From assembly GCA_963762565.1 (NCBI GenBank), contig CAVXLD010000012.1, forward strand, positions 448,001 to 512,000: a DNA stretch of 64,000 nucleotides, given 5' to 3'. The notes beneath the pieces were generated by a model, which was not told the origin of the DNA, made no database searches, and was given only the letters and a program-made list of their open reading frames with translations. Positions 33,093 to 64,000 of this stretch are shown here, piece after piece. The position numbers and the translations under genes are program-made. Origin of the DNA: an uncultured Verrucomicrobiae bacterium (GTDB lineage Bacteria; Verrucomicrobiota; Verrucomicrobiia; Chthoniobacterales; JAFAMB01). Within the stretch, counting starts at the first letter, position 1. The number at the start of each line of letters is the position of its first letter.

Positions 33093-33242
33093 CGAGGACT
33101 TATCTAAACCGCGAATGGACACGAATGAACACGAATATTTTAATCACGAATCGATCGATTACCGTCCCCGACCGCTGGCATTTGCCAAAGCCGTTAAACC
33201 TATCTGCGTAAATCTGCGTTCATCTGCGGTTAAATATTCGCG

Positions 33243-34238: not shown

Positions 34239-34507
34239 GACGCCTAATCGACCCTATTTCACGCTTGTCAATCGCGGACGGGCGCACGAAGGGAACGAAA
34301 CAATAGCCTCGCGCAAAGGGCGCAAAGGACGCAAAGGGAAGACAGACGAACCGCAGCCCCGAAATTCTCCGGGGTCAAATTAACGCAGTCGCCTCGCCTT
34401 TCACCTTTCACCTTTCACCCTCTTCCCTTTGCGTCCGTTGCGTCCTCTGCGCGAGGTTTCTGCCTTCCGGGTTTTCGGGTCGCTGCGCGCCGCTCAGGGC
34501 GCCGATG

Positions 34508-36125: not shown

Positions 36126-36508
36126 TCCCCGAAAAAGAACACGAAACCAAATCTCACGCAAAGAACGCAAAGCCGCAAAGAAAAGACAGTAATAGCCGCG
36201 AAAGAGCACAAAGAACACAAAGAAAGCCTCGCGCAGAGGACGCAAAGGGCGCAGAGGGAGCGGAAGAACGTGAAAGGTGGAAAATCTCGAAAAAACACGA
36301 ACCGCAGCCCCGAAATTCTCCGAGGTGAAATGGACGCAGATAGGGTACGGAGGGGAGGGGAACCGCGTTTACGAGCGTGGGCTTGATGCCAGCGCGACAG
36401 CTACTCCTTGAACTTCTCGAACTCCTGCAACTCCTTGAACTCCCTTTTCTCTGCGCTTTTTGTGCCTTCGCAGCTTGCCGCGCCGTAGGCTCTGCGAAGG
36501 AGGGGCTA

Positions 36509-37570: not shown

Positions 37571-37933
37571 GGAGAGAGAATCTCACGCAAAACCGCAAAG
37601 AAAAGACAACAACCGCAGATGGACGCAGATTTACACAGATAGGGTATGGGGGAGGAGAACCGGGTTTACGAGCCGACAGCCACTCCTTGAACTCCTTTTT
37701 TTTGCGCTTTTTGTGCCCTTGGCCGACGAAGCTAAAGGGGGAGGTGGGGCGAAGTCGGCTTTTCGCGGCTATTAGTTTTTTCCACCAATCACAATCACCT
37801 CTCGCCAATCACCTCCCACCTTTCACCTGGGCAACGATTTACAAGATTCACAGTATGTGTGGACGGCTTACCCCATCTTGTATTTTTAGGAGCACAGACT
37901 CCCGGAAACACAAACCGCACGATTTCCCCTAAA

Positions 37934-38615: not shown

Positions 38616-38818
38616 AAGGGTGGCCACCTATCGATTCGCGGTCCATCTTTTATCTGCGTAAATCTGCGTCCATCTGCGGTTAAGTTTTGTATTCGTGTTA
38701 ATTCGTGTCCATTCGCTGCTATGTCCGCGCCGTAGGCTTGGCGAAGGCGGGGTCCCTTTATGCGTTCTTTGTGCTCTTTCGCGGCTATTCCTGTCTTCGA
38801 CCAATCACCAATCACCAA

Positions 38819-44671: not shown

Positions 44672-44773
44672 CGAAAATGGACCGCGAATGGACGCGAATC
44701 GACACGAACACAGAGAAAAGATCAACCGCAGCCCCGAAATTCTCCGGGGTGAAATTTACTCAGATACGGGGAC

Positions 44774-52282: not shown

Positions 52283-52331
52283 TTGGTGATTAGTGACTGG
52301 TGATTGGTGGGAAACCTCGACAGCGACGAAA

Positions 52332-52460
52332 GAGCGAAGCCTAGTAGAGCCGCGTAGCGTTTACCCCGGAGCATTTCGGGGGTGAAATAATTATAGCCTA
52401 GGGTGAGTCCTCGAGCCCTAGGTAAACAGGGAAAAGAGTACCAGCGCTGTAAGCGCGGCA
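52332..52460. repeat. REP-like family D (CCTAGGG...CCCTAGG), also at 54275-54378 and 57845-57953
   Basis: Shared GAGCGRAGCCTA...AGCCTAGGGTGA...GCCCTAGG...GCGCTG.A.GCGCG. Confidence 0.7.
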
Positions 52461-52667
52461 GACTCGGTGTCGGCGTGCTGGCGGTCGATCCCGCGTGTGC
52501 GGCCTAGCCATTGTTGCAGGGGTCGCGAGCCTTGTCTGCGTAAATTTCACCCCGGAGAATTTCGGGGCTGCGGTTGATGTTTTTCCCCAACGCCAATCAC
52601 CAATCACCAATCACTAATCACTAATCACTAATCACCCGTCCCCCCTCTGCGCGAGGTTCTGTTCCGA

Positions 52668-54263: not shown

Positions 54264-54567
54264 ACGGACTGGAAGAGCGGAGCCTAGTAGAGGTGCGAAG
54301 CACTGGAAAGAATTTAGCCTAGGGTGAAGCCCTAGGTATTCGATTTAAAAAACGCCCGGCGCTGAAGGCGCGCAAGAAATGTTGTCCCAAAGAACCCTTT
54401 GTGATTTCCCACGTGTTCTTGCCTAGCGACATCTTCCCACCAATCACGAATCACCAATCACCTTTCGCGCTCTTCCCGCCCCTATCTGCTTAAATTTCAC
54501 CCCGGAGAATTTCGGGGCTGCGGTTAGTCTGTCTTTCTTCGGGTGCACCATTCCCCCTGAGCGGCCA

Positions 54568-54900
54568 CTAACCAATCAACGCACGTAACTTGGCTCGGAC
54601 TTCGGCCAACTCAGCCGATGTTACCCGGCCTTTTGGCTGCGCCTTACCTTCGCGCCAATCGAGACTCTTCACCTGATCGGCTAGCACAACGCTGGAAGGC
54701 AAACCACCGATCTGGACCTCGAATGGATAACCCTTAATGTGGGTTGTTAGCGGACAACAGATTAGCAGACCAGCTTTCCGGTTGTACGCCGCCGGGCTAA
54801 GTACGAGCGCCGGACGATGCCCAGCCTGTTCGTAACCGGCCTGTGGCGTAAAATTCAGCCAGACGATCTCGCCGGCATCGGGCACGTATCCTCGCGCCAT
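54568..54900 (-). CDS. mazF: MazF/PemK endoribonuclease toxin
   Basis: YVPDAGEIVWLNFTPQAGYEQAGHRPALVLSP; DQVKSLDW. Confidence 0.95.
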   Translation of the reverse strand: MARGYVPDAGEIVWLNFTPQAGYEQAGHRPALVLSPAAYNRKAGLLICCPLTTHIKGYPFEVQIGGLPSSVVLADQVKSLDWREGKAQPKGRVTSAELAEVRAKLRALIG

Positions 54901-55168: not shown

Positions 55169-55431
55169 ATAAGCGACTATTAGACAACCAAAAACCAATT
55201 GGGCGCTTCCTTCCCCAAAACCCATTTCACCCCGGAGAATTTCGGGGCTGCGGTTAGATCTGTCTTTCTTCGCTTCGATTCGTCGCCCGTCGCGCCGTAG
55301 GCTTTGCGGAGGCGGATTCATTCGCGGTCCGTCTTCAATCTGTCATTTGTCATTTGTCATCTGTCATACGCGTAGCGCCCTGCGGTTCGTGTTTTATTAG
55401 GCTTTTCGATTTAAGGTTATGATTGAGCCCA

Positions 55432-57742: not shown

Positions 57743-58208
57743 AAGTCAGACCTTAATGATCTCGCGCCAACACGGCAAAGACGAACCGCAGATGGACGCA
57801 CAGGGGGAGGGTGAAAGGTGATTGGTGAAAGGTGAAAGGTAAAAAGCGGAGCCTAATAAAGCCGCGTAGCGGTGAAATATTTATAGCCTAGGGTGAGTCT
57901 GCGAGCCCTAGGAAAGCATCCAAAAGACCGCCCAGCGCTGAAAGCGCGCAAGAATCGCATCCCGAAGACCCACGACTCGCAAGCTCAATCTAGGCTCTCC
58001 TGTAACAGACCCATCTGCGTAAATCTGCATAAATTTCGCCCCGGAGAATTTCGGGGCTGCGGTTGTTGTCTTCTCTTTGCGGCTTTGCGTCTTGGCGTGA
58101 GATTTTCTCTTCGTCTTTTTTTGCGTTCTTTGTGTTCTTTTGCGGCTATTTCACCTTTCGAGATCGGAGCGCTTCGGCTATTGGTTATTAGAGATTCGCG
58201 AAGCGATT

Positions 58209-58529: not shown

Positions 58530-58742
58530 CTGAGCCAGACTGCAGGTACCCCGCGATTCTTTTCCAGTTGTACCAAGTTTCCAAAGGCGGAGCGCTTACA
58601 AGTCACCTATTGGACTTCCTACGCCTCGCAAGCTCACTCCCGCGGCCGTGGAAAGGCACCGCTCCAAGGGCCCCCTATCTGCGTCCATTTCACCCCGGAG
58701 AATTTCGGGGCTGCGGTTAGTGTTTTATTTTGCGCGTCAACT

Positions 58743-63706: not shown

Positions 63707-64000
63707 ATCACCAATCACGTTTCCTCGGCCACCGCTAGGGACTATGCGTCGCACCTCCTTTAGGCTCCGCTCTACCGCCAATCCATCTGCGTAAATCTGC
63801 CTCCATTTTACCCCGGAGAATTTCGGGGCTGCGGTTGAATTGCCTTCCCTTTGCGCCTTTGCGTGAGATTTTATTCGTGTCCATTCGCGGTCCGTTTTTG
63901 CGTTTCTTCGCGGCTGTTAAGGTTTTCCACCAATCACTAATCACCACTCACCAATCACGCTCTTCCTCTCTTTGCGTGAGAATCCTTCTGGCTTCAGCGA

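Follow-up and report, generated by a model that had tools for sequence, protein, structure and literature searches.

At positions 52360 to 52381 of a 64,000-nt stretch of bacterial DNA, referred to here as the window, a 22-nt hairpin sits inside one copy of a short repeat and is missing from another copy of that repeat in the same window, and close variants of the hairpin recur in a second, unrelated repeat. The question raised by this locus is whether so short a sequence is a mobile unit in its own right and, if so, what it enters and what would move it. The window corresponds to C12:448001-512000 of a genome of 6.12 Mb and 54% G+C in 15 contigs (G000). Heptamer arrays near the site at first suggested a cyanobacterial origin, which is rejected: its genes are those of an ordinary heterotroph, the gene content is not cyanobacterial, and HIP1 occurs only 462 times in the genome. 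For one window protein, the best named relatives come from MAGs of Verrucomicrobiota and Acidobacteriota (~60% identity), and the metagenome runs that contain window DNA are from soil. Judged from its sequence and that of its many insertion sites, the 22-nt module is very probably a discrete, non-autonomous insertion unit of the SDR/REP class.

Copies, boundaries and structure of the 22-nt module

A preliminary description of the window had listed ten positions for CCCCGAAATTCTCCGGGGTGAA and its close variants. All ten were recovered with three mismatches or fewer, two of them shifted by a single base (34356 to 34357, and 54495 to 54496), while each of 100 shuffles gave 0 matches. Genome-wide, a search allowing up to four mismatches returned 81 matches, 30 of them exact, and removal of three four-mismatch matches outside either host context (C1:1451919, C1:1236892 and C10:77220) left 78 modules. 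Nearly all of these lie in one of two contexts, which we call host 1 and host 2, and a third class of target is the loop of an existing module copy. Alignment of the junctions across the genome, which had been proposed as a check, defined the target as CGCAG in host 1, CAG in host 2 and CCCCGAA in the loop (top strand), each followed directly by an exact 22-nt unit with no duplication.

The filled and empty sites reported earlier for the window also hold (^ marks the junction). Host 1 is empty as AACCGCAG^ATGGACGCAGAT at 37611 and, in reverse, at 38681, and is filled at 36300-36341; host 2 is empty as GCCGCGTAGCG^GTGAAAT at 57861 and filled at 52349-52388; and both pairs differ by exactly 22 nt. 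The shorter host-1 match that had been given at 57784 is indeed there, as a partial copy with two mismatches. Moving either boundary by one base fails to restore the empty sequence; the ends are thus defined to the base, and the target is not duplicated. Measured against MITEs of the DDE transposase type, which have terminal inverted repeats of 15-30 bp and a target-site duplication, the module has for inverted ends only the 5-bp ends of its own stem, and it lacks a duplicated target.

Modules are found mainly outside genes. Only 13 of the 78 lie within an open frame of at least 200 aa, compared with 1506 of 2000 random positions, and all ten window modules fall between Pfam-supported ORFs. 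On metagenome contigs, the exact 22-mer adjoins orthologues with 72-75% protein identity to the window protein.

Among the 78 modules, which were picked by similarity, only positions 9, 10, 13 and 20 vary appreciably; the set of host-1 inserts defined by context is a fairer sample and shows the same picture of conservation. Positions 9 and 10 form the centre of the loop. Position 13 alternates between C and T, and the base facing it is always A. On the top strand, 36 of 41 variants have an A.C mismatch at pair 6-13; on the bottom strand, all 41 are paired there, as G.T or A-T. In DNA folding, the bottom strand forms a 7-bp stem with a tetraloop (-5.2 kcal/mol) and the top strand a 5-bp stem (-4.4 kcal/mol). 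Read on the bottom strand, the module consists of a 4-nt tag (TTCA or TTTA; GTTC in the nested subfamily) and an 18-nt palindrome. Because the stems are almost invariant, there are no double compensatory changes, and only the C/T alternation at position 13 preserves the bottom-strand pair.

The surroundings of the flagged site are themselves repetitive. Mirrored heptamer arrays (GGTGATT / AATCACC) at 52283-52308, 52596-52637 and 54440-54465 bracket a composite that holds the 52360 and 52546 modules, and the entire spacer 52283-52637 is a nested palindrome. Between the modules at 54496 and 55226 there is an ORF for a PemK/MazF-family toxin (54568-54900, minus strand; Pfam 4e-26).

Table 1. Modules, host sites and related features in the window (plain coordinates) and elsewhere in the same genome (contig:position).
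Feature	Position	Strand	Context
Module, 1 mismatch, tail TCAA	34357..34378	+	Host-1 site
Module filling host 1 (AACCGCAG^ATGGACGCAGAT)	36308..36329	+	Within filled site 36300-36341
Module, exact	44732..44753	+	Host 1
Module, subfamily B (loop ATGC, tail TAAA)	52360..52381	-	Fills host 2; flagged site
Filled host-2 repeat: CCTAGG hairpin, linker, module, CGCTACGCGGC motif	52349..52422	-	
Module, exact	52546..52567	-	Host 1
Module, exact	54496..54517	-	Host 1; orthologous spacer filled in L153, empty in L156
Module, exact	55226..55247	-	Left flank host 1, right flank not array
Module, 1 mismatch	58035..58056	-	Host 1
Module, exact	58689..58710	-	Host 1
Module, TAAA tail	63807..63828	-	Host 1
Host-1 site, empty	37611..37630	+	
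Host-1 site, empty	38662..38681	-	
Host-1 site, empty, 1 mismatch	33212..33231	-	
Host-1 site, empty, truncated	57784..57803	+	2-mismatch partial copy
Host-2 repeat, empty	57861..57913	+	Paralogue of 52349-52422, 83% identity over 117 nt across junction
Host-2 repeat, empty, second, more diverged	54284..54337	+	
Second module, 30-32 nt	C13:130966, C5:119929, C12:398452, C3:800140		
Second module, 30-32 nt, reverse-oriented	C7:576773, C6:56261/56527, C4:28863, C3:135141/135455, C12:74414		
Y1 paralogues, 348-357 aa	C1:531701, C5:482843, C12:565110, C3:501577		

Tandem arrays, host 2 and module loops as targets

Host 1 forms the head of an array of tandem 10-mers (AACCGCAG-AT-NN-ACGCAGAT-NN-ACGCAGAT...). 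A scan for host-1 junctions defined by context alone, with the sequence of any insert ignored, found 137 junctions in the genome with nothing between CGCAG and AT and 44 with a 22-nt insert. The insert is the module in 41 of the 44 (22 exact), and the remaining three are artefacts caused by a match to an upstream GCAG. The same scan found three inserts of 21 or 23 nt, 0 of them the module. The boundaries are thus not ragged. In five cases, identified by eye, the module lies one array unit further in, again directly after CGCAG.

Counted as array heads, there are 209 host-1 sites, 160 empty and 49 filled. The two arms of a palindrome fill independently: among 53 convergent arm pairs, 37 are empty on both arms, 13 are filled on one and 3 on both, and independence would give 35.7, 15.6 and 1.7, respectively. 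The host variants next to filled sites are GG (22), GA (12), TA (7) and TT (6), and those of empty sites are led by GA (56), GG (37) and TA (28). GG and TT are enriched among filled sites, with GG at 22 of 49 filled against 37 of 161 empty. Filling is also uneven along the genome. In C12:480-540 kb, 11 sites are filled and 9 empty (55%), as opposed to 38 and 151 elsewhere (20%; Fisher p=0.0013), and 14 of the 70 modules with three mismatches or fewer lie within C12:482-524 kb.

The host-1 bond is also used by something else. A second discrete, hairpin-forming module of 30-32 nt (AACCTGTCGCGCC...GGCGG) is found at the same CGCAG^AT bond of host-1 arrays in both orientations, which makes these arrays landing pads for more than one module.

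Host 2 is built of a CCTAGG hairpin, a linker of ~16 nt ending in CAG, and CGCTTCGCGCC. By eye, ~14 copies are filled and ~11 empty, all at the CAG^CGC bond, and this insertion point is the foot of a GCGC-TTC-GCGC mini-hairpin. The tail of the module goes with the host, being TGAA mostly in host 1 and TAAA in host 2. A chimera at C5:58421 has a host-1 left flank, a subfamily-B module and a right flank like that of host 2, and may be a recombinant of two filled sites.

The third target is the module itself. Nests were traced from orphaned right halves of the module, the first of them at C12:~537.4 kb; the pattern of the left half was too loose. Across genomes of the genus, the nest signature CCCGAACCCCGAAA matches 4 times in G000 (2 loci), 7 times in G004, twice in G005 and 0 times in each of G002 and G003. 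Eleven nests were parsed, comprising six of the seven G004 matches, both from G005, both G000 loci and the metagenome locus L163. Their layout is the same at all 11 loci: the outer copy is interrupted after its first 7 nt, a full inner copy of 21-23 nt follows, and then come the other 14-15 nt of the outer copy. The inner copy is mostly CCCCGAAAGC.T.CGGGGGAAC. Seven nests lie in host 1 and four in host 2, and the outer and inner variants differ between nests. Both G000 nests are triple, with a third copy inverted inside a near-palindromic second and following CCCCGAA on its own strand. The two triple nests are located outside the window at C12:537420-537500 (L199:1490-1580) and C3:254640-254710 (L194), with a 19-bp hairpin of -24.8 kcal/mol (z = -4.05). 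At C3:873390, the 18-nt hairpin without its tail tips a perfect palindrome with 23-nt arms, built of its own left flank, which looks like a template-switch or snap-back product.

Spread of the module and what may move it

When the module was deleted in silico, the joined flanks of 19 of the 78 copies matched an insert-free paralogue over at least 30 nt on each side. Only one duplicated unit, of ~220 nt (C7:642.4 kb and 645.3 kb), has the module at the same junction in both of its copies, and even these two differ in their opposite arm, one being filled and the other empty (FF vs FE). Empty host-1 sites and modules are also unequally distributed within the genus, at 99/57 in G000, 56/37 in G004, 60/10 in G003, 69/4 in G002, 118/1 in G005 and 0/0 in G001. 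A search of 35 genomes from other genera of this family and order found no module. One of these 35, from another family of the same order (G029), has four exact array heads of host 1 and no module; the array word of host 1 may be older than the genus. Taken together, the independent arms, the host variants shared by filled and empty sites, the empty paralogues and the unequal counts in the genus favour a secondary invader with its own tightly constrained sequence over a passenger or a deletion variant of the hosts, and from these sequence distributions we favour a host older than the module. The concern raised with the preliminary description, that all filled sites might descend from one host repeat, does not apply: there are three unrelated targets and insertions at the second array unit, alongside the shared host variants, the independently filled arms and the 19 empty paralogues.

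The orthologous spacer upstream of a 531-aa gene has host 1 filled in G000 and in the metagenome contig L153 and empty in L156, with insecure orthology of the repeat. Genes of congeners are ~75-85% identical, and their spacers do not align. Two metagenome contigs that are 99.9-100% identical (L160 and L164) differ not by the module but by larger pieces: clean blocks of 74, 85 and 66 nt lie in repeat-rich spacers, and one of 99 nt, in frame, lies within the orthologue of the 531-aa gene. These could be strain differences or assembly effects.

The alternative that fares best needs no dedicated enzyme. The module could have entered host repeats by a few rare illegitimate events and then passed from filled to empty repeats by homologous gene conversion, with the flanking host sequence (8 + 20-30 nt) as the homology. 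This would account for the strict dependence on host flanks, the exact ends, the lack of duplication, the correlation of subfamily with host and the excess of filled sites in C12:480-540 kb (55% vs 20%, p=0.0013), and it fits the surplus of the GG variant. We nevertheless consider it unlikely. Identical modules stand beside differing host variants (ATGG, ATGA, ATTA, ATTT), so that conversion tracts must repeatedly have stopped 2-3 nt from the module, and the arms of one palindrome, the closest possible partners for conversion, fill independently of each other. In addition, three unrelated targets and the loops (7 + 15 nt of homology; 11 nests of varied variants) would need another process anyway, and G005 retains 118 empty sites with one module.

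An RNA copy of the hairpin that is reverse-transcribed or reverse-spliced into DNA is, in our assessment, improbable. Movement by an RNA route was reportedly suggested by Elhai et al. in 2008 for the SDRs of Nostoc, the closest described analogue. The genome does contain matches to reverse transcriptases, and in 36 of 41 variants the better-folding strand forms a G.U-type wobble at pair 6-13. However, DNA hairpins tolerate G.T wobbles too, and the sole intact reverse transcriptase is of the group II intron maturase type, the other matches being fragments, so the RNA route is no better supported for it. Window copies show no fixed orientation relative to neighbouring genes, and we know of no activity that places a 22-nt RNA at such sites.

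Least probable of all, to the point where we give it little weight, is that the 22-mer is an optional internal segment of its host repeats, a passenger only, with empty sites produced by precise deletion: the C7 duplicate and the preferred module variant of each host agree with this, but there is no microhomology at the junctions (AG^CC ... AA^AT) to guide repeated precise deletion, 13 arm pairs are half-filled, insertions at the second unit and in loops exist, the other arm differs even in the C7 duplicate, and genomes with hardly any module are still rich in host 1 (host 1 vs module, 118 vs 1 in G005 and 69 vs 4 in G002).

As the overall explanation, we lean slightly towards an insertion unit moved by a trans-acting HUH Y1 enzyme. 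Such an enzyme would bind the folded single strand of the module and cut exactly at both of its ends, and the excised module would be joined into single-stranded target DNA. Targets would be short sequences prone to become single-stranded, in which the whole unit is placed alone and repeatedly, with empty sites left untouched. We infer three points: insertion, not loss, as the origin of the differences; single-stranded DNA as the substrate; and the identity of the acting enzyme. For the engine itself, a RAYT/IS200-type enzyme whose gene lies elsewhere in the genome is a plausible candidate, held with somewhat less confidence than the reading as a whole.

Candidate enzymes are present in the genome, which has 12 Y1_Tnp matches. 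Five Y1 ORFs are ~150-170 aa long, the best of which scores as IS200-type. Four diverged paralogues (348-357 aa) have a weak RAYT match, a C-terminal DnaA-C-like tail and no flanking inverted repeats, and share 68-74% nucleotide identity within the Y1 domain only. Host 2 turns out to be the inverted terminal repeat of a 149-aa Y1 ORF at C9:102235-102684, with arms of 42 nt whose CCTAGG hairpins face inward and whose CGCTTCGCGGC motif faces outward; the remaining short Y1 genes are flanked by different inverted repeats of their own. Since host 2 flanks a Y1 gene, the landing sites of the module include at least one repeat of the REPIN/RAYT type. The more stable fold of the bottom strand and its intact pair 6-13 in all variants also count in favour of a Y1 enzyme.

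Within ~1.5-2.5 kb of Y1 genes, the module was found at 0 of 12 in G000 and at 0 of 31 loci in the six genus genomes (MAGs, 78-95% complete). Among the same six genomes, which are mostly incomplete MAGs, no distribution of a Y1 orthologue tracks the abundance of the module, and comparison of the Y1 paralogues singles out no enzyme. The orientation of modules shows no bias with GC skew (+/- 22/21 in G>C and 11/16 in C>G regions), a weak test because module orientation follows that of the host repeat. Of the preliminary claim, the ultra-small, non-autonomous unit inserted without duplication is supported by the exact ends and the unrelated targets. Its proposed HUH chemistry is circumstantial: the REP-like architecture, the twelve Y1 matches and the identity of host 2 as a Y1 terminal repeat speak for it, and the lack of any Y1 gene flanked by the module and of strand bias speak against it.

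Relation to SDRs, REPs and IS200/IS605 elements

SDR1-8 of Nostoc punctiforme and its relatives, as reportedly described by Elhai and colleagues in 2008, are dispersed, hairpin-forming, non-coding sequences of 21-27 nt. They are said to lie in short tandem-repeat arrays and in small transposon-like repeats and to be nested in themselves; one family is said to have a fixed short target, and hairpins with compensatory changes are reported for SDR4-6. On these properties the likeness is close. The module is 22 nt long, dispersed, hairpin-forming and non-coding, with 78 copies in G000; it occupies fixed positions in arrays (41 fills after CGCAG) and in the transposon-like host 2 (~14 fills); and its copies are nested in copies (11 nests, two of them triple). 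Unlike the SDRs of Nostoc, the module comes from a soil Verrucomicrobiota lineage, its arrays are of 10-mers where the SDR arrays are of heptamers, and one of its hosts is the terminal repeat of a Y1 transposase gene. The likeness between the two is one of behaviour.

In architecture, the module resembles REPs, which are described as a conserved tetranucleotide, usually GTAG, with a palindrome of 20-50 nt behind it (PMC8266576). According to the same source, REPs are processed as single strands, and the mechanism of their dissemination is still unresolved. A tetranucleotide tag followed by a near-perfect palindrome, 22 nt in all, is comparable to the short, perfect "group 3" REPs (PMC8266576, PMC3333891, PMC2817692), as are the tens of copies, mostly outside genes and often in inverted pairs. 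As in REP/RAYT systems, the genome has several single-copy, diverged Y1 genes, some with inverted repeats of their own. The tag of the module, however, is TTCA, TTTA or GTTC and not GTAG or CGTC. In contrast to a REPtron, no Y1 gene is flanked by the module, and it is host 2 that flanks the gene at C9:102235-102684. Clean filled, empty and nested sites of a single unit are visible for the module, and most REP families lack clean empty sites. The TnpA-REP of E. coli cuts at C^T (PMC3333891), whereas the junctions of the module are G^C, A^A and A^C.

Other related systems share some of these features. REPINs are presented as REP doublets that act as the replicating unit (Bertels and Rainey 2011, PMC3116915). 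The module is similarly non-autonomous, hairpin-based and extragenic, and host 2 with its Y1 gene resembles a REPIN/RAYT pair, but the unit is a 22-nt singlet rather than a doublet of ~70-100 nt, and the arms fill independently. Like IS200/IS605 elements and their gene-less derivatives, the module lies 3' of a short specific sequence, has a hairpin, leaves no duplication and has seamless empty sites (PMC3333891, PMC8266576). These elements are also reported to prefer the lagging-strand template (PMC3333891). The module differs from them in having no strand bias, in consisting of a single hairpin from base 1 instead of two different subterminal hairpins with 5' guide tetranucleotides, and in being smaller by an order of magnitude or more. 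Small tagged palindromes inside other short palindromic repeats have been described before, as REPs within "target" palindromes, and no REP-less targets were found there in A. variabilis or H. neapolitanus (Di Nocera et al. 2013, PMC3733652). The module, unlike those two examples, has more empty than filled targets and is documented in nests. The same account lists the verrucomicrobium Opitutus terrae as rich in GTAG REPs (PMC3733652).

The module thus has the behaviour of an SDR and the build of a minimal REP, and it falls outside the RAYT-REP system on one feature, the flanking RAYT gene. SDR-like repeats outside the Nostocaceae were not found according to PMC5861425, and our own literature term searches, which are not proof of absence, returned no description of an SDR-type element in Verrucomicrobia. 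The module would extend SDR-type elements beyond the Nostocaceae, their supposed limit as given there (PMC5861425).

How REPs and the smaller SDRs spread has been a question since their discovery. Most REP families are without clean empty sites, and the module family offers a 22-nt unit, three junctions and more than 100 empty targets, together with nests that record the order of events and about nine full-length Y1 candidates in the same genome. With a defined unit, defined junctions, empty targets and candidate enzymes, oligonucleotide cleavage and strand-transfer assays can be designed from the sequence. The module looks to be among the smallest mobile DNA units, and a clean case in which to study the spread of repeats. 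A bolder version of our reading, which we regard as doubtful at present, is that a RAYT-type Y1 enzyme moves REP units singly and has the 22-mer as its complete natural substrate, with exactly tag and hairpin excised as single-stranded DNA and joined into exposed single strands, including the loops of hairpins. If this were true, the filled, empty and nested sites would record, for the first time in nature, both junctions of REP-singlet transposition, and REPs and SDRs would form one widespread class.
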